A stretch of 6,516 nt of DNA from a virus. Numbering within the stretch: the first letter of the stretch is position 1; each line of letters opens with the position of its first letter. The notes below the pieces were generated by a model that saw nothing but the letters and a program-made list of their open reading frames with translations, was not told where the DNA came from and ran no database searches. The stretch covers positions 1-6,516 of IMG/VR virus record IMGVR_UViG_3300022758_000054; one strand, written 5' to 3'. The translations under genes and the position numbers were made by a program. Positions 1 to 6,516 of this stretch are shown here, piece after piece.

Positions 1-127
1 ACCCGGAGACCAAGAATCACCATTCAAATAAACCAAAGCAGAGCCCAAATCGAACAACCTTAAAGACGGCAAATAAGTTCCAAGAGCCAAATTCTGAGTC
101 AAAGACAACGCCTGAATCTGATTGACG
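1..127. repeat. Terminal redundancy copy 1 (circular-genome assembly overlap)
   Basis: Compared base by base, 1..127 is identical to 6390..6516. The reading frame of the capsid gene is continuous across the junction. Confidence 0.95.
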
Positions 128-414
128 TCCTGCATCTGGGTCAATACGGAAGGCGCAGACTTCCAAAGAAGGCGTAAAGGAACAGCGTAGAAATCAAAGT
201 ATTCACGCAACCGGGTATAAGCAGAAGTTTCAACGGGCTGAGTGCGAGTGAAATACTCAACGTTAAACTTATACTTATCACCAGGCATTGAAATATCGAA
301 GTAAACGGGAAGAAGCTCACCAACTTTTGCAGTAAATGCATTTTTACGTCCAATATCAAAGCCAGAACGGTGAGGATGGTTCTGAAGATTGGACATTCCA
401 GTGTAAGAAGCCAT
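1..414 (-). CDS. VP1: Major capsid protein VP1 (F-like), N-terminal 138 codons; continues at 6389 after the circular wrap
   Basis: My translation from ATG 414..412 gives MASYTGMSNLQNHPHRSGFDIGRKNAFTAKVGELLPVYFDISMPGDKYKFNVEYFTRTQPVETSAYTRLREYFDFYAVPLRLLWKSAPSVLTQMQDVNQIQALSLTQNLALGTYLPSL... An in-frame stop (TAG) lies upstream at 441..439. The frame is open to base 1 and is the same frame as ORF 4944..6497 through the 127-nt repeat. The N-terminal motif pattern is typical of Microviridae capsid proteins. The ORF track missed it because it is cut by the window edge. Confidence 0.93.
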   Translation of the reverse strand, partial: MASYTGMSNLQNHPHRSGFDIGRKNAFTAKVGELLPVYFDISMPGDKYKFNVEYFTRTQPVETSAYTRLREYFDFYAVPLRLLWKSAPSVLTQMQDVNQIQALSLTQNLALGTYLPSLRLFDLGSALVYLNGDSWSPG

Positions 415-441
415 AAAAAAACATTTTAAAATTAAACACTA

Positions 442-2139
442 TCAGTCCTGATAAGAAAAAACACCAAACAAATCATTGACCTTCTTGTGTTTGACCTTAT
501 CCCTACACTTCATCAATGCAGCGGCAGCCAAACGACGAACAAGAGGCAATTCATGGTAAGATTTCTCCTTATCAAGAACAGATCTATTATAACGGAAAGA
601 ATAGTTACGAATCTCAAAGTCTACCAAATCCTTATCATTGGAATCTTCCAAAGTCTGATAGAAATCTACAAGACGGTGGTAATCATAAAAATTCCAAAAA
701 TAAACTATTTTCTCAGAGATTATTCGTAAAAACCTTTCCCGGCAGAAAAGTTCTCCTCCAGGAGTGCCGCTGGACCAGAAGAGTTCCGAGCATCCGTCTG
801 TTGAATATGTTCGAATAAACTTCGAAATTCCGAGAAAAAAGCGGTAGACACGGGACAGACGATGAGCAGCTTCCAAATCAGCACCATCGTACAGACGACA
901 TTCAGAAAGAACGAGAACATCACTATGCGGTAAATTCGCCTGAGGAGAGAGGAAATTCCTATATTCATTTGATTTTCCATAATTATCTACATAATTTAAA
1001 TACTGTTTACAAAAAGACAAAATACTTTGCTTGGAACTTTCGCCAAACGGATCGCAACCTATATCAGCGCATCCGCTACGAATGACCCGTTCGGGCGCTG
1101 TGAACGCAGCAAAAAGTAACTGGTAAATACTCGATGGAGATTTACGAATAGCGTCCGAAAATCGGGGGAATAGTCGAAGGAGATACGGCCATGTAGGTTT
1201 AATTGTGCGAAAATAACCATCGCGTTCAACGCGGACTCCATCAAGGCACTTATCGATAACTTCGTCAATTTCGGCAACTCGTACCTTTCGAGGAAAGAGA
1301 TTTGACTCTGTAAATCCAATGGAATGGAAGGATTTAGGTCGCACCACTTTTGGCATTTGAGTATAAAAGTCGGGTAAAGCGACAAAACTATTAACATACG
1401 ACGCAACATACGAAGCTGCAAATCCTCGCGAGAGTGACGCATCACAACGACCGTAAGACCAAGCCTTAGATACATTTTCACAAACAGTTTGCGAGAATCG
1501 TTCGGAATTGGAAAACAATAACAAGTGCCAATGCGGGCGGAAACTGGTAGGACCGTATTCTGATACAGCGTAGTAACGTAATTTTTCATCCGGGTAATAA
1601 CTTCTTAAACGTTTTAAAAATAAATCAAGGTCACGATTACAAACATAAGGAATCCTATTGGGAACATTATGATTAATCTTGCCAAGAATAGACAAAAGCT
1701 CCTTAGGTTTCATAGGATAAGTAAATCTTATCTCAGGATCCTTGAATATACGCTCAACGGTAGAATTTTTCAACTTGACAGAAGCGGTGCGAGGAACGCT
1801 GCGAAAACCAAAAAGATAAGTATTAGGGTCACCAGCGTCCAAGTCATTAATATCTGGAACGCAGGATACATCCGCAATATCATCCGTACAAAGTTCAACA
1901 AGCGAAACCTTCAAAGTAGGAAGAAAGCAAGGAGCATAAGTAAGAGTAACAAAGTATACATAACGGAATTGAGCAGAATAAGTAGTGAGCAAATTTGTTT
2001 GAATCCCGGAACGACGAAGAATACAAGAGGGGCAAGAGCCACAAGACACAAGAACAGACTCTTGTGTATACTTATTAACAACCGTGCGAGGATTCTGACA
2101 ACGGGTCACTAGCTTATTCTGCAATTCCTTAGTAATCAT
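442..2139 (-). CDS. VP4: Rolling-circle replication initiator protein VP4 (phiX174 A-like, HUH endonuclease)
   Basis: 565 aa. Motif 1 is FVTLTY (aa 63-68). The HUH motif is HWHLLLF (aa 203-209; H203 = nt 1533..1531). The two-tyrosine motif is YVASYVN (Y244 = 1410..1408, Y248 = 1398..1396), which closely resembles the phiX174 A active site YVAKYVNK. There is an N-terminal Cys cluster, C..P...SCGSCPSC. The ATG overlaps the upstream stop as ATGA. Confidence 0.95.
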   Translation of the reverse strand: MITKELQNKLVTRCQNPRTVVNKYTQESVLVSCGSCPSCILRRSGIQTNLLTTYSAQFRYVYFVTLTYAPCFLPTLKVSLVELCTDDIADVSCVPDINDLDAGDPNTYLFGFRSVPRTASVKLKNSTVERIFKDPEIRFTYPMKPKELLSILGKINHNVPNRIPYVCNRDLDLFLKRLRSYYPDEKLRYYAVSEYGPTSFRPHWHLLLFSNSERFSQTVCENVSKAWSYGRCDASLSRGFAASYVASYVNSFVALPDFYTQMPKVVRPKSFHSIGFTESNLFPRKVRVAEIDEVIDKCLDGVRVERDGYFRTIKPTWPYLLRLFPRFSDAIRKSPSSIYQLLFAAFTAPERVIRSGCADIGCDPFGESSKQSILSFCKQYLNYVDNYGKSNEYRNFLSPQANLPHSDVLVLSECRLYDGADLEAAHRLSRVYRFFLGISKFIRTYSTDGCSELFWSSGTPGGELFCRERFLRIISEKIVYFWNFYDYHRLVDFYQTLEDSNDKDLVDFEIRNYSFRYNRSVLDKEKSYHELPLVRRLAAAALMKCRDKVKHKKVNDLFGVFSYQD

Positions 2140-2444
2140 TTTCTATCAGTAAAATTAAGTTCCATTTGACGGGGTTTGCGACCGCGAGCAAAAGAAACAT
2201 GAATGAATGTACGATATTTTATAAGCTGGTCAAATTTAAAGGAAGAACATTTAACCATCGAGAGGAATCCATCAACCGAAAGGTCGACAGGTTTGAGGTC
2301 AACGGCATCACCGGTCAGATGTTGGGAGTTCCTAGAACCGTTACACGCATCATTCTGTGCTACAGTACGGAGAGCGGAAGTAACGGTAAAATGAACATTC
2401 CGACAAAGAAGCCATTCAAGAAATTTCATTAATTCGGGGTTCAT
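2136..2444 (-). CDS. Peptidase M15-like zinc D-Ala-D-Ala carboxypeptidase / cell-wall hydrolase (putative endolysin)
   Basis: 102 aa. The segment TVTSALRT..N...GS.NSQHLTGDAVDL ... YRTFIHVS matches the Peptidase_M15_3/VanY-type signature S.H..G.A.D ... H: H42-x6-D49 plus H82 as candidate Zn ligands. ATG is at 2444..2442. The stop TGA at 2138..2136 overlaps the Rep ATG. No obvious signal peptide. Confidence 0.78.
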   Translation of the reverse strand: MNPELMKFLEWLLCRNVHFTVTSALRTVAQNDACNGSRNSQHLTGDAVDLKPVDLSVDGFLSMVKCSSFKFDQLIKYRTFIHVSFARGRKPRQMELNFTDRK

Positions 2445-2447
2445 GAC

Positions 2448-2537
2448 TTACGAAAAAATTTGGGCAATAGACGTAAGAAGACTGACAGCAGCTGCAATAA
2501 TAGCAGACCAGATTTTAGATTTAGTTTCACTTTTCAT
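2448..2537 (-). CDS. 29-aa single-pass transmembrane peptide (holin-like candidate)
   Basis: My translation is MKSETKSKIWSAIIAAAVSLLTSIAQIFS*. It has a charged N-terminus followed by a 20-residue hydrophobic helix. The stop TAA at 2450..2448 lies 3 nt before the peptidase ATG. Its ATG (2537..2535) sits inside the end of the upstream 57-aa ORF. It is below the ORF-track length cutoff. Confidence 0.5.
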   Translation of the reverse strand: MKSETKSKIWSAIIAAAVSLLTSIAQIFS

Positions 2538-2700
2538 CAGAAGGGGAATTAAAGGTTGAACATGAAGAAACGATAATCAAACAGTCCGAACTAAGAGTAA
2601 AAGAAACAAAATCGGAAATTTCATTAACCGGCACAAGAACAGTCTTGTTCCGATTAGGATCAACTTTGGACTGAATACAACACAAATAAAAATCTTCCAT
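2527..2700 (-). CDS. Hypothetical 57-aa protein, first ORF of the Rep-proximal gene block
   Basis: My translation is MEDFYLCCIQSKVDPNRNKTVLVPVNEISDFVSFTLSSDCLIIVSSCSTFNSPSDEK*. ATG is at 2700..2698 and TGA at 2529..2527, overlapping the next ORF by 11 nt. It is on the coding strand and packed like the neighbouring genes. I recognise no motif. Confidence 0.4.
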   Translation of the reverse strand: MEDFYLCCIQSKVDPNRNKTVLVPVNEISDFVSFTLSSDCLIIVSSCSTFNSPSDEK

Positions 2701-2816
2701 AACTAATAAATATTAAATGTTAAACGATATGACGGGGCGAATATACAAAATAAAATCAATAACCAAAACATATAAGCAAAAAAATACATAAGTTATATGG
2801 GTGGCAGGCTGGTCTG

Positions 2817-2889
2817 TGAGTTTGCGTATATAAGACAAGGGGGAGACTGAAAGCGATGAGGTAAATCGCTTTCCCTCCGGGCAAACTCA
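2817..2889. other. Nested stem-loop element: outer 9-bp stem enclosing an inner 9-bp hairpin
   Basis: The outer stem pairs tgagtttgc (2817..2825) with gcaaactca (2881..2889). The inner hairpin pairs gaaagcgat (2849..2857) with atcgctttc (2865..2873) around a 7-nt loop, gaggtaa. Both stems are perfect complements. Confidence 0.55.
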
Positions 2890-2891
2890 TG

Positions 2892-3054
2892 TAGGCTTCG
2901 CCAAGTTATATCCTTGTATTTCAAGTATTTACAGTGATAAAAAGAGCAGCTCTCCGGGAGATTGCATACGCGCTACAAGCATCAAGATTTTAGACTTCGC
3001 CAAGTTATATACTTGTATTTCAAGTATTTACAGTGATAAAAAGAGCAGCTCTCC
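2892..3054. repeat. 64-nt direct repeat, two copies (2892..2955 and 2991..3054), period 99 nt
   Basis: The unit is tag[g/a]cttcgccaagttatat[c/a]cttgtatttcaagtatttacagtgataaaaagagcagctctcc, with 2 mismatches in 64. Each copy ends in the 16-nt core. Confidence 0.9.
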
Positions 3055-3189
3055 AGAGGCGGAAAAGAGCAGCTCTCCAGAGGCGGAAAAGAACAGCTCT
3101 CCAGACATTCTTTATATTTAAGGTGTTTAACGGCGACGGAAAAGAGCAGCTCTCCGGGAGATCGCATACGCGTTGCAAACATCAAGATC
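2940..3189. repeat. 50-nt direct repeat (2940..2989 and 3140..3189, 200 nt apart) bracketing the array; five copies in all of the core AAAAGAGCAGCTCTCC
   Basis: The unit is aaaagagcagctctccgggagat[t/c]gcatacgcg[c/t]t[a/g]caa[g/a]catcaagat[t/c], with 5 mismatches in 50. Cores start at 2940, 3039, 3063, 3087 (1 mismatch) and 3140. The core contains the palindrome AGAGC-A-GCTCT. Copies 1 and 5 add an overlapping palindrome, TCTCC-G-GGAGA. Confidence 0.9.
3039..3110. repeat. 24-nt tandem repeat, about 2.7 copies (aaaagagcagctctccagaggcgg)
   Basis: Units are at 3039..3062 and 3063..3086 (identical), plus a degenerate third unit at 3087..3110 (aaaagaacagctctccagacattc). Confidence 0.9.
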
Positions 3190-3291
3190 CGAGGAAGGCA
3201 GTACTATAGCCTGACGGCTCTGATTTCAGTCCTAACGTCCCGAAATCCAGGAGGTGCATAACCACGCTACGCGCGGTTGCCAGAAGTTACT

Positions 3292-3331
3292 CCAAACAAC
3301 AAAGCCCGGCGTGTATCACTACAAACCGGGT
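3292..3331 (-). terminator. Weak candidate intrinsic terminator downstream of VP2
   Basis: The minus strand reads ACCCGG-16 nt-CCGGGC followed by TTTGTTGTTTGG. That is a 5-bp G+C stem (3305..3309 with 3326..3330), a long loop and a T-rich tail, beginning about 28 nt after the VP2 stop. Confidence 0.25.
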
Positions 3332-3358
3332 AAGAAAAACGAAAAGAAGCACGGAAGA

Positions 3359-4447
3359 CTAACGACGAGTACTAATAACTCTATGAGGTATAAAATTACC
3401 TATAGTATTACCAATACTTGTTCCATAGTCTATCCATTTATCAGAATCAAAATACTCATATTTTTTCTTTTCATTTCGAGAACGATACCAAGACTCAATA
3501 TTCCTACTACGAGCATTATCTTGAGAAAGACCTAATCTGAGTTCCTCATTATGATAAGCGGCAGAAGATTGATTAGCCGCAATATTGGCAGCAATTTGAG
3601 ACTCAGCAATACGAGAAGCAACCTTATTAGAAATATTCTGACCACGCGCACGAGCGGCAGCCAAAGCTTCCTCAGCTATAGCCTTTTTAGCGGCAGCATA
3701 AGAAAGATAGCCAGAAGACATGCGCTGGTAGTAATCCGCAGCCTTAACATTCAAATCAAGCTGCTGCTGCTGGTCAAGATACTTGTTCAAAATACCCTTA
3801 GCCTCATTATCAAGAAGCATACCAGAACGCTGAGCGCGCATAATAAGACCTGTCATTGCCATATTATCAGCTTCTTGCTGTTCCTTAGCATAACCAAGCT
3901 GAGCACGTGCCAATCCAGTAGATTTCAAATAATTACGGGTTTCATCAGTAAGTTTTCCCCAATCTACATTGGAAAGAGTTTCCATTGCCTTAGCATCAGC
4001 AAGTTGTCTAGCACCTTGCAATTGAGACTTTTGAGATTGCATCAACTCATATTGGAAAATGTTACCAATGGAAGAACCAATACCGGAATAATCAGCCTGA
4101 AAAGGTTGCATGACGGCAGAACCAGAAGAAGAAGCAGAAGAGCCAGTACCAGCTGATTGAGCAACACCAGCTGAGCCTCCATTCATCATCAAATAAGGAT
4201 TCAAACCAGCTTCCTCGAGACGCTGACGTTGGGCAGATGCAGTGTTATAAGCGTTTTCCTTATTCCACATGTTTTCCTGCCAGTTACGCTGCTGAATCGC
4301 CATACGTTCGTTAAACTGGTTATTCATCTGATTAATTTTGTAATTCATCCGGTTGGTTTCCTGGACATTTTGTCTATTCTGCGAATTTTGAACAGCAGAA
4401 GAACCAATGCCAAGGAGACCACCAGCAATTGAACCAAGAAGACCCAT
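3359..4447 (-). CDS. VP2: Minor capsid / DNA pilot protein VP2 (phiX174 H-like)
   Basis: 362 aa. The Gly-rich hydrophobic N-terminus MGLLGSIAGGLLGIGSSAV resembles the phiX174 H N-terminus MFGAIAGGIASALAGG. The segment NERMAIQQRNWQENMWNKENAYNTASAQRQRLEEAGLNPYLMM carries the AGLNP motif that I recall from gokushovirus/alpavirus VP2. The body is Q/A/N-rich and coiled-coil-like. Its ATG (4447..4445) overlaps the upstream stop as TAATG. Confidence 0.85.
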   Translation of the reverse strand: MGLLGSIAGGLLGIGSSAVQNSQNRQNVQETNRMNYKINQMNNQFNERMAIQQRNWQENMWNKENAYNTASAQRQRLEEAGLNPYLMMNGGSAGVAQSAGTGSSASSSGSAVMQPFQADYSGIGSSIGNIFQYELMQSQKSQLQGARQLADAKAMETLSNVDWGKLTDETRNYLKSTGLARAQLGYAKEQQEADNMAMTGLIMRAQRSGMLLDNEAKGILNKYLDQQQQLDLNVKAADYYQRMSSGYLSYAAAKKAIAEEALAAARARGQNISNKVASRIAESQIAANIAANQSSAAYHNEELRLGLSQDNARSRNIESWYRSRNEKKKYEYFDSDKWIDYGTSIGNTIGNFIPHRVISTRR

Positions 4448-4929
4448 TATTCGGAGGAAGCAGCACCGGCGGAAGCAGCTGCCGCCTTTTCTGCCTCTTG
4501 TTTAGCAGTTTCAGCATCAATCAATTCCTGCGCCTGGGACTCAAGACTTTCAGCATAAGCAGACAACTCCTTAGACCAAGCAATAATCTCAGAAGGAGCC
4601 TGGACATGCCGGGAACGAACCGTTGCCAAAAGGTCATCATCAGACATTCCATCCATAATCTGCTGGGTCTGGGAAGCAGACTGTCTGCTTTGCCCAAACT
4701 TGGAAGCAACAGCGAGACCGGCACGGGAAGACAAATCCTTGGTATGAAGAATCAAACGAACATCAGAAGTATAACGAACCGGACGAGTTTCATCCGAATC
4801 ATCAATTTCAACACGAAGCTGTTCAGTAGAATCAAATTCGGGAGCAACTGCAAAAGTATCCGGTTCAACATTGGGAATAAGTCCAGAACCTTGTTCCAAA
4901 CTATTCAAAGAATTAAATTTTCCAAACAT
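4447..4929 (-). CDS. 160-aa acidic protein, putative internal scaffolding (VP3-like) protein
   Basis: ATG at 4929..4927 lies 14 nt after the VP1 stop. The stop TAA at 4449..4447 overlaps the VP2 start. The protein is acidic (D/E-rich, e.g. EIDDSDE, MSDDD) with an A/E-rich helical C-terminus. The functional call rests on position and composition only. Confidence 0.6.
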   Translation of the reverse strand: MFGKFNSLNSLEQGSGLIPNVEPDTFAVAPEFDSTEQLRVEIDDSDETRPVRYTSDVRLILHTKDLSSRAGLAVASKFGQSRQSASQTQQIMDGMSDDDLLATVRSRHVQAPSEIIAWSKELSAYAESLESQAQELIDAETAKQEAEKAAAASAGAASSE

Positions 4930-4943
4930 AATTAAAACAAGAT

Positions 4944-6516
4944 TTAGTAAGGTACACCATCACGAGACAAGTTACGGGCAACATAGCAACCAATATAAGA
5001 GTTAACCAACAACTGGTCAGTATCCCAAGTAGAATCAGCATTAACACCGAAAATCGGGTCAAGAACAGAAGGATTGACCTTAAAGAACTTATAGTTCAAG
5101 GCAACCTTAGTTCCAGTATCAGGAGTAGAACCACCGAACCGTGCCCAACCGGAAAGAAGAGACTCGGTAACAGGAGAAACCCAAGATTTAAGAGTAGTAG
5201 TGAACGCCCCGTTGATTACATCAAGCTTGGTTTTCCAATTGAAATAACGGGGATTATATCCGGCATTAAACAAATTGAAAGCGGTAGCAAGCGGAGAGTT
5301 GAAAATCTGGGTCATGGGAAGAACTTCCATACCAATGTTATCAAACTCAGGAATCGGCAAAGACTCAGCATCAGTGACCAACAGCTGCCCGTCCTGACCA
5401 GTAATGGAATAATCAAGAAGAGGAACGGCATGATAAATACACATAACGACACAATGCTCGTCGGTCGTATATGTAAACGAACCATTACCAGCACCTACAC
5501 CCTTACCGGCAATAACAGCAGTATCACCTTCGGCAGCAAGGTTATTATTAACAACTTCACTGATATCAAGGTTACGGGAAATACCACCGATATAGGTGCA
5601 CATATTGGAAAGAGCCTGAGGTAAGTTCACACCAAAATGTTTACGAATCTGCTCACGATAATCAGAATCACCAGACTGGCTGATTTCTTTCCAACGTTGA
5701 AGAGCCTCGGCTTGACGAAGAGCAAGGACAGTAAATTGACTTTGCAAATTTGAAAGATCAACTTGAAGAGTGGAATTAGAAGGAATGACATTACTAGTAG
5801 AAGCGTCAATAGCTGAGAGAGATATCGGAGTAAGAGGAGCATTGTAAGAACCAGTAGTAGCTACTTGAGAAGAAGCAGCAGAGTTCGGACTCTTCAAAAA
5901 TACAGAAGAAGAGATAGTACCCTCAGTATTTGAAACATCAATCACAGCAACATCACCAAACTGAGAATTCGGAAGAACACCCATCAGCATATCCTTGTTC
6001 CAATTACAGTATTTGAGGTCAAACATTGTATCGGATTTCCAATAATCAGAAGTAGTTCCAGGAAGAGAGTCAACAAAAAAAGGTGAAACGCCGGAAAAAT
6101 AATCAACATTATAAGAAGAGGGATTTGAACTTTCCCATTGAGACCAGCGAAAAAAGTCCTGATAAATCTTCTGATAAGCAAGAAGAGGGAATAGATTCAC
6201 ACAATTATTCTGAATATATTGTTGAGTATAACTAACAGCATCATCAGTATTTTTTATAGAAGTAGACCACCAACGATTGCTAGAAGAAGGAGCGTCTTTC
6301 ATAAAGTTACCATAACCAAGATAACTCAACAACTTATAAGCTAAATCAGAACGGGAAAAACCAAAAGCGTTTTTTTTAGCAGAAGAAGCACCCGGAGACC
6401 AAGAATCACCATTCAAATAAACCAAAGCAGAGCCCAAATCGAACAACCTTAAAGACGGCAAATAAGTTCCAAGAGCCAAATTCTGAGTCAAAGACAACGC
6501 CTGAATCTGATTGACG
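4944..6516 (-). CDS. VP1: Major capsid protein VP1 (F-like), C-terminal part; open to the window edge, and 6390..6516 duplicates 1..127
   Basis: The track ORF 4944..6497 begins at a TTG only because the window ends; the frame stays open to 6516. It contains the conserved block FTVLALRQAEALQRWKEISQSGDSDYREQIRKHFGV, typical of Microviridae capsids. The stop TAA is at 4946..4944. Joined to 1..414, the gene is 1,860 nt (619 aa). Confidence 0.95.
   Translation of the reverse strand, partial: VNQIQALSLTQNLALGTYLPSLRLFDLGSALVYLNGDSWSPGASSAKKNAFGFSRSDLAYKLLSYLGYGNFMKDAPSSSNRWWSTSIKNTDDAVSYTQQYIQNNCVNLFPLLAYQKIYQDFFRWSQWESSNPSSYNVDYFSGVSPFFVDSLPGTTSDYWKSDTMFDLKYCNWNKDMLMGVLPNSQFGDVAVIDVSNTEGTISSSVFLKSPNSAASSQVATTGSYNAPLTPISLSAIDASTSNVIPSNSTLQVDLSNLQSQFTVLALRQAEALQRWKEISQSGDSDYREQIRKHFGVNLPQALSNMCTYIGGISRNLDISEVVNNNLAAEGDTAVIAGKGVGAGNGSFTYTTDEHCVVMCIYHAVPLLDYSITGQDGQLLVTDAESLPIPEFDNIGMEVLPMTQIFNSPLATAFNLFNAGYNPRYFNWKTKLDVINGAFTTTLKSWVSPVTESLLSGWARFGGSTPDTGTKVALNYKFFKVNPSVLDPIFGVNADSTWDTDQLLVNSYIGCYVARNLSRDGVPY

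Follow-up and report, generated by a model that had tools for sequence, protein, structure and literature searches.

What a palindromic sequence of 16 nucleotides (nt), repeated five times, is doing in the non-coding region of a microvirus is the question raised by IMG/VR virus record IMGVR_UViG_3300022758_000054, of which positions 1 to 6,516 were analyzed (the window, 6,516 nt). A first-pass annotation of this DNA had read the repeated sequence, here called the core, as an iteron-like array of binding sites for a dimeric protein such as Rep. Our analysis points to a different source. The five-copy core very probably arose recently and in this lineage alone, when one peripheral, dispensable stem-loop was amplified together with neighboring sequence, by duplication and slippage at an insertion-tolerant junction between two conserved blocks, A and B. 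The two blocks form a conserved cassette of ∼300 nt, and we see an even chance that this cassette is a host-dependent complementary-strand origin of the kind known from phage G4 and from single-strand initiation (ssi) signals, which would act on the T-rich strand of the genome.

The core, AAAAGAGCAGCTCTCC, occurs exactly at positions 2940, 3039, 3063, and 3140, and with one mismatch, as AAAAGAACAGCTCTCC, at 3087. The five copies described by the first-pass annotation are thus present at the spacings given there (99, 24, 24, and 53 nt from core to core), although strictly they are four exact copies plus one variant; 0.01 core matches are expected by chance, and none of 200 shuffles reached five. 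The larger repeats claimed around them also held up, as a 64-nt direct repeat (2892 to 2955 and 2991 to 3054, 97% identical), a 24-nt tandem repeat of 2.8 copies (3039 to 3105), and a long bracketing repeat that measures 49 nt (2940 to 2988 and 3140 to 3188, 92% identical). Because the copies of the long repeats diverge from each other by 2 and 4 substitutions, and because related arrays are present in two close relatives, each from an independent metagenome assembly, an assembly artifact is an unlikely source of the repeats. In both relatives, a 35-nt piece (X) precedes the core, and there are four extra tandem units in L075 and one extra unit in L127; the Rep proteins of L075 and L127 are 93% and 91% identical to that of the window in amino acid (aa) sequence. 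The exact tandem junction of the window array was not found in IMG/VR, and its copy number is thus provisional. The array is real, specific to this lineage, and variable in copy number.

The source of the repeats lies in the conserved sequence that flanks them. When the gap was compared with 50,697 phage records by blastn, matches were obtained in 16 uncultivated microvirus records only, and in the best-covered of these relatives the match was split into two pieces on either side of the repeats. Pattern scans of IMG/VR and metagenomes, combined with profile searches, enlarged the set to >130 genomes, the majority of them ∼6.2-kb circles from the guts of humans and animals; in most genomes of the set, block A (2799 to 2903 in the window, minus strand; nhmmer, 117 bits) abuts block B (3119 to 3293, minus strand; nhmmer, 176 bits). 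The usual gap between A and B is ∼9 nt (6 to 11 nt in 100 of 123 genomes, with the blocks directly abutting in Dulem virus 236), versus 215 nt in the window. This window-specific insertion (2904 to 3118, assigned to no strand) consists of a first piece X (X1, 2905 to 2939), core copy 1 (2940 to 2955), a degenerate copy of the start of B (2956 to 2990), a copy of the last 14 nt of A (2991 to 3004), a second piece X (X2, 3004 to 3038), and three 24-nt units that each contain a core (3039 to 3062, 3063 to 3086, and 3087 to 3110), after which the normal linker resumes. The degenerate copy covers the first 50 nt of B, and a second partial match to the B profile was obtained at 2941 to 2993 (nhmmer). 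Parts of the conserved sequence on either side, from the end of A and the start of B, have been duplicated to give the repeats. Core copy 5 (3140 to 3155) is the ancestral one; it is the peripheral hairpin P1.1 of block B and aligns with the single equivalent segment of every other genome.

The A/B junction is hypervariable and tolerates insertions. Other lineages (L004, L012, L023, L031, L105, and L107) carry at the same junction an unrelated insert of ∼141 to 150 nt that bears hairpins of its own, e.g., GGGGTCGCAAGCGAC. A nested-deletion series is seen at the junction in L113 (90 nt), L015 (74 nt), and L108/L136 (47 nt), and the 5′ half of B is replaced in L017 and L038.

If the core were an array of iterons or operators, it would be bound by a dimeric protein, either Rep or a host factor, and its copy number would tune replication or transcription. 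The window does resemble plasmids and circular Rep-encoding single-stranded (CRESS) DNA viruses in having direct repeats of a short unit in the non-coding region of a Rep-encoding replicon; iterons are recognized by at least three such repeats near an origin, and here there are five near-identical, internally palindromic copies, three of them in 24-nt tandem. The differing numbers of extra copies among close relatives (1, 4, and 4) could also reflect selection. Iterons, however, are conserved in relatives and matched to the cognate Rep, whereas the window repeat is not conserved, does not covary with Rep, and derives from a structural hairpin. Only 3 of >130 genomes, the window and two of its close relatives, have multiple copies, and more than 120 other genomes have a single equivalent segment inside B. 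This segment varies in sequence while its pairing is kept (GGAGAG/CTCTCC, AGAAC/GTTCT, and AAAAG/CTTTT, by eye), i.e., the ancestral copy is maintained by compensation rather than by sequence, and in ∼40% of genomes a purine-rich, non-palindromic sequence takes the place of the hairpin. The latter form is found in L008, the genome with the Rep closest to that of the window (93.9% aa identity), and mean Rep identity does not track core type (85.8% versus 86.3%). Because the core varies or is lost regardless of Rep similarity, it does not fit a Rep-matched iteron, and its units are visibly copied from the flanking cassette; we therefore consider a protein-binding array very unlikely. Two of the functions suggested by the first-pass annotation, a (−)-strand origin and host-factor binding, agree with the best explanation for the conserved cassette but not for the repeated core. 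For annotation, repeat arrays of this type should be read against the surrounding conserved element before they are called iterons.

The 24-nt units might instead be decoys, copies of a type III antitoxin (ToxI-like) RNA expanded against a host abortive-infection toxin. Pseudo-ToxI expansion is described in phage escape mutants, and a tandem array whose copy number varies between close relatives would suit such a role. At 24 nt, however, the unit falls short of known type III antitoxin repeats, which are about 34 to 45 nt long; no promoter was found for the array, the genome has no toxin-like gene (only capsid, scaffold, pilot, a 57-aa open reading frame [ORF], M15 peptidase, and Rep), and the units were copied from a hairpin of the cassette. 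A decoy is accordingly an explanation to which we give almost no credence.

Fold and strand of the conserved cassette

Block A forms a three-way junction closed by helix HA1 (2817 to 2825 with 2881 to 2889), which encloses HA2 (2849 to 2857 with 2865 to 2873) and the mini-hairpin HA2b (2874 to 2880, CCGGAGG in the minus sense). A further mini-hairpin, HA3 (2894 to 2902, minus-sense GCGAAGC), follows the junction. HA2, HA2b, and HA3 show compensatory changes, and the helices of block A are 95.6 to 100% paired. Block B contains P1 (3130 to 3135 with 3171 to 3176), P2 (3208 to 3219, with the minus-sense mini-hairpin CCGTCAGG at 3210 to 3217), P3 (3220 to 3227 with 3242 to 3250), and P4 (3260 to 3278, with minus-sense GCGTAGC at 3266 to 3272). 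The fold was tested on 92 distinct A+B elements, using ten hand-curated helix segments with 48 pairs. Helices were curated by hand because the RNAalifold prediction for the full element was partly wrong: it paired positions 27 to 30 with 117 to 120, where covariation supports a local GGC/GCC hairpin. The 48 curated pairs were 99.2% paired, and 11 of them (123 cells) had changed on both sides. None of 500 shuffles matched this result, and partners slid out of register gave 25 to 42% pairing. Divergent members add compensatory changes in P2, P3, and P4.

The two strands of the cassette differ in their loops. Read in the minus sense, the terminal loops at four hairpins are G-N-A or G-N-N-A, with N free, in 84/90, 80/80, 114/118, and 112/114 sequences. 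Mini-hairpins of the form C-GNA-G or C-GNNA-G average 4.5 per element in the minus sense versus 0.17 in the plus sense (92 elements); the non-coding region of the window has four in the minus sense and none in the plus sense, and 4 of 1,000 shuffles reach four. DNA mini-hairpins of the sequences GCGNAGC and GCGNNAGC are reported to be extraordinarily stable; in G4, St-1, and alpha3 they are located in hairpin I of the complementary-strand origin, and ssiA of RSF1010 also carries a mini-hairpin, at which the RepB′ primase binds (2026 review, PMC13037366). Stable hairpins that include such mini-hairpins, the mark of G4/ssi-type origins, are thus present in the cassette. The composition-controlled folding z-score is likewise best for DNA read in the minus sense, at −2.97 (canonical element) and −2.95 (window), values that no shuffle equaled. 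Within P4, a conserved A.C on the plus strand is a G.T on the minus strand, which favors the minus sense. This pair, 3264/3274, is kept in nearly all of the >118 sequences; the pair beside it shifts from C-G to T-A, and only L063 converts 3264/3274 itself to A-T. Wobbles or mismatches conserved in this way often serve in recognition.

Taken as a whole, the strand evidence is mixed, and part of it would suit a different kind of element, in which A and B encode a plus-sense structured non-coding RNA that acts on a host or phage factor and the extra cores add stem-loops. G.T pairs are confined to the plus sense in P1 (a fixed G.T along with A-T/G.T variation), in the end (closing) helix, and in a possible long-range, pseudoknot-like pairing between the 5′ part of B and the inner loop of P3; the minus strand would have A.C mismatches at these positions. 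As RNA, these pairs would read as A-U/G.U/G-C series. Raw folding energy is also lower for the plus sense, in 31/31 cases when computed as RNA and 30/31 as DNA, and the strong conservation and the transfer between lineages would befit a self-contained RNA gene. Sporadic wobbles outside P1 (17 G.T in the plus sense and 14 in the minus sense) do not decide the strand. An RNA is harder to reconcile with the plus-sense z-score of only −1.6, with an Rfam 15 covariance-model search of the whole window that gave no match at E ≤ 1 on either strand, and with the four conserved loops, which in the plus sense read U..C and have no known stabilizing role. Plus-sense UUCG/UNCG tetraloops were considered and rejected: HA3 and P4 cannot form the closing pairs that such loops need, and the triloop register is the one supported by variant L027.

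The transcription context bears on the same alternative. A Bacteroidetes-type promoter is located beyond A on the coding strand as an exact match in 109/124 related genomes and on the other strand in 0/124, while the same search found no plus-sense promoter upstream of the element (0/124) or inside it (0/92). The hosts are probably Bacteroidota. In a second family, which has only block B (see below), a promoter follows B on the coding strand in 10/12 genomes. If a cassette RNA were made in the same sense throughout, one of the two families would have no promoter for it; the plus-sense RNA would be antisense to the genes in the family of the window and would lie in the Rep 3′ untranslated region in the B-only family. 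The window itself has no exact match to the strict pattern TTTG-N17-23-TAnnTTTG, but a promoter-like region for the operon of the 57-aa ORF, M15 peptidase, and Rep was recognized by eye at 2738 to 2768 (minus strand), with a −33-like TTTG and an imperfect −7 box, TATATTCG. On the other side, a terminator-like hairpin (3291 to 3330, minus strand; stem 3305 to 3309 with 3326 to 3330 plus an inner stem, followed by CTTTGTTGTTTGG; by eye) ends the capsid-scaffold-pilot operon and is conserved in alignment A2 with compensatory changes. It was missed by a simple terminator scan, since its loop exceeds 8 nt and its T-run is interrupted; simple terminator scans and sigma-70 promoter scans are uninformative for this host group. 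The element lies between the two signals, downstream of the terminator-like hairpin and upstream of the promoter on the coding strand. An RNA gene also does not predict that orientation should follow composition skew rather than the genes, as described below, and we judge this alternative unlikely.

Orientation, strand composition, and transfer between lineages

The B-only family (mar40, mar45, mar49, L063, and relatives) has genomes of ∼6 kb and a Rep of 355 aa, and the capsid and pilot proteins of the window gave no tblastn match against L063 or mar45. Here, B begins at the Rep stop codon and has the same sense as the genes. In the family of the window, B is opposite to the gene sense, and its orientation relative to the genes therefore flips between families. 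The composition of the coding strand flips as well. At 4-fold degenerate sites, it is 62 to 67% T in typical members of the window family (∼50% in the divergent mar62) and 52 to 66% A in typical B-only members (40% in mar49). The resulting profiles are mirrored (T ∼0.64, C 0.16, A 0.12, and G 0.08 in the window family versus A ∼0.62, G 0.14, C 0.11, and T 0.12 in the other, from a comparison of the window with L050, L051, L053, L063, L068, L087, L111, L121, L131, and L145 to L159), a pattern suggesting that one of the families has its mutational or packaging polarity reversed with respect to its genes. Relative to composition, the orientation of the cassette is constant: in 135 of 137 loci, the A-rich strand is the one that carries B in its plus sense, and the mini-hairpins are therefore on the T-rich strand. 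The same rule is followed in a third lineage by Dulem virus 262 (PP511329; L052:2361-2416), whose capsid is 20% identical and which has only the P4 module. Its P4 hairpin and flanks are 95% identical over 44 nt and lie inside a 340-nt non-coding region of its own; P4 may be a minimal functional or transferable unit.

The sequences of B cluster by ecosystem rather than by virus family. The B of marmot mar62, a member of the A+B family, is closest to those of marmot mar45 and mar40, which are B-only, and L063-like B sequences are 76 to 88% identical to the A+B-type B of human and lemur viruses. This grouping implies that B has passed repeatedly from one lineage to another, among viruses with essentially unrelated Rep and capsid proteins.

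Single-stranded DNA phages show a C→T bias on the single strand (PMC4032129), and the coding strands of phiX174, Chp2, and the Bacteroides fragilis microvirus phiHBP1 are T-rich at 4-fold sites. On these grounds, the T-rich strand is likely the packaged strand, as judged solely from its T-richness. In the B-only family, where the cassette follows the gene sense, the mini-hairpins are on the non-coding strand, and the 4-fold sites of the coding strand (∼60% A and 10% T) are the mirror image of the T-rich ones in phiX174, Chp2, phiHBP1, and the window family. We offer only tentatively the suggestion that this gut microvirus family (mar40, mar45, mar49, and L063-like genomes) packages the strand complementary to its genes and that the cassette marks the packaged strand. 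If so, its members would be the first negative-sense representatives of a group regarded as positive-sense. The cassette would then serve as a complementary-strand origin, specific to the host and exchanged horizontally between viruses, and packaging polarity would restrict the orientation in which it can be inserted. An orientation that follows skew instead of gene direction could serve as a marker of packaging polarity readable from sequence alone, and it raises the possibility of negative-sense microviruses.

The tie between orientation and genome-wide strand skew could also arise if the cassette were a viral-strand (+) origin or a packaging signal, recognized by the phage Rep or capsid, whose orientation defines the displaced, packaged strand. 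Hairpins are common at the nick sites of HUH endonucleases, and the position of B at the Rep stop codon in the B-only family would fit. Against this reading, the same B (76 to 88% identical) is found with Reps of 565 and 355 aa that share only a weak match of 51 aa and with capsids that are 20 to 25% identical or have no detectable match, and close relatives with a similar capsid, such as L145 (major capsid protein 83% identical), are without the cassette. Nor was a conserved phiX-like CAACTTG site found, and the one CRESS-like nonanucleotide, TAGTATTAC (plus strand, 3403 to 3411), lies outside the cassette and is at chance level. We therefore regard a (+) origin or packaging signal as quite improbable. 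The nonanucleotide is a perfect match to the CRESS pattern NANTATTAC, of which ∼0.8 are expected by chance, and is located inside the 3′ end of the pilot gene.

The cassette as a candidate complementary-strand origin

In the mechanism that we propose, for which we infer both the identity of the packaged strand and priming at the cassette, A and B would act as single-stranded DNA on the T-rich strand, which is the coding strand here and presumably the packaged one. After entry, the hairpins would remain folded in DNA coated with single-stranded DNA-binding protein, and the mini-hairpins would mark where the host primase or RNA polymerase starts the complementary-strand primer. Dependence on the host rather than on the virus would allow the cassette to move between unrelated microviruses of the same hosts, with its orientation fixed relative to the packaged strand. 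The array would be a by-product of duplication in the hypervariable junction.

Several observations weigh against this mechanism, in addition to the plus-sense wobbles and raw folding energies described above. The cassette has no sequence homology to the origins of G4, St-1, and alpha3 (blastn, 50,697 phage records), and the likeness to them is by mechanism only. The orientation rule comes from only three or four independent lineages or transfer events. The T-rich rule is not universal, since phiMH2K (L141, AF306496) has a 4-fold profile of A 0.45, T 0.25, C 0.23, and G 0.06, and both phiHBP1 and most relatives of L063 are without the cassette. Because these viruses lack it, the cassette must be replaceable. 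The complement of the phiMH2K profile resembles the coding strand of Chp2. The B-lacking relatives of L063 have a nearly identical folded non-coding segment of 163 nt, composed of a long hairpin and smaller ones (L148:5753-5915, L150:5820-6007, L152:5808-5970, and L155:1710-1872), which looks like a different cassette in the non-coding slot.

To our knowledge, where and how microviruses start complementary-strand synthesis is known only for the phiX174/G4 group. Within that group, the complementary-strand origins of G4, St-1, phiK, and alpha3 share with the cassette its placement between genes in non-coding microvirus DNA, the presence of several stable hairpins on a single strand, and mini-hairpins of the GCGNAGC/GCGNNAGC type (minus-sense GCGAAGC, GCGTAGC, CCGGAGG, and CCGTCAGG in the window), as well as the use of host enzymes rather than phage proteins, which would be expected of the cassette. 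They differ in being ∼140 nt long with three hairpins, compared with ∼300 nt and eight or more helices, and in their hosts, as those of the cassette are presumably Bacteroidota; the cassette is also mobile between lineages and absent from some relatives. Plasmid single-strand origins (sso) and ssi signals provide a second parallel, being likewise long, highly structured non-coding DNA. The origins ssoA, ssoU, and ssoT function in one orientation only, on the displaced strand, are host-specific, and are exchanged between replicons with different Reps, and like them the cassette is replaceable, although its replicon is a virus and not a plasmid. The CCGAAGG mini-hairpin of ssiA (RSF1010) is the same heptamer as the family consensus of HA2b. 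Origins of the ssoA type have a conserved RSB and, in the terminal loop, the CS-6 consensus TAGCG(T/A); as a bare sequence, regardless of loops, TAGCG(T/A) occurs once in the minus sense of the window's non-coding region and not at all in the plus sense.

In reekeekee- and roodoodooviruses, negative-strand synthesis has been proposed to start at intergenic hairpins that are conserved and show compensatory changes (PMC9865509). These hairpins, and the n′/PriA hairpin of phiX174, are single and 13 to 64 nt long, whereas the cassette is a multidomain element of ∼300 nt with a hypervariable junction and transfer across lineages. The Ff intergenic region lies between a terminator and a promoter and combines several hairpin-based DNA functions on the packaged strand. 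The cassette likewise lies between a terminator-like hairpin and a promoter, but it has no homology to the Ff region, and the Ff hairpins mimic a sigma-70 promoter whereas A and B have no Bacteroidetes promoter motif inside. No description of the A/B cassette was found in the literature searched. Few phages of the human gut are as abundant as microviruses, and a conserved, transferable cassette of ∼300 nt with G4/ssiA-type mini-hairpins is a concrete, clonable candidate origin for tests in Bacteroides.

Genome layout, genes, and related assemblies

The pattern for B had no match in 185,579 reference genomes. A capsid search of the reference genomes returned only three short contigs, and thus neither a prophage nor a host was identified by that route. 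The three contigs (L142, L143, and L144, from Saccharospirillum, Marinomonas, and Chitinophaga assemblies) are 1.4 to 3.5 kb long, encode capsid fragments 44 to 68% identical to the capsid of the window, and are probably contaminating microvirus reads rather than prophages. Four further loci (L073, L110, L114, and L116), whose contigs exceed genome length (9 to 35 kb) or hold two copies of the cassette, appear to be concatenated or chimeric assemblies of related microviruses and not prophages; L114 is an inverted duplication.

The ends of the window share 127 bases, as expected of a circular microvirus genome, here of 6,389 nt. All genes are on the minus strand and comprise the major capsid protein (414 wrapping to 4944), the scaffold (4929 to 4447), the DNA pilot (4447 to 3359), the 57-aa ORF (2700 to 2527), the M15 peptidase (2444 to 2136), and the 565-aa Rep (2139 to 442). 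The 658-nt gap between the pilot gene and the 57-aa ORF (3358 to 2701) is non-coding, in agreement with the first-pass annotation, as the only ORFs inside it (2982 to 3182, minus strand, 66 aa; 3033 to 3209, plus strand, 58 aa) have no Pfam or PHROG match. Both ORFs traverse the repeats, and they are very unlikely to be genes because relatives are without the insertion. No tRNA or tmRNA was found in the whole window (ARAGORN). The M15-family peptidase (102 aa, endolysin-like) overlaps the start of Rep by 4 nt and would provide a lysis enzyme, versus the single-gene lysis protein of phiX174.

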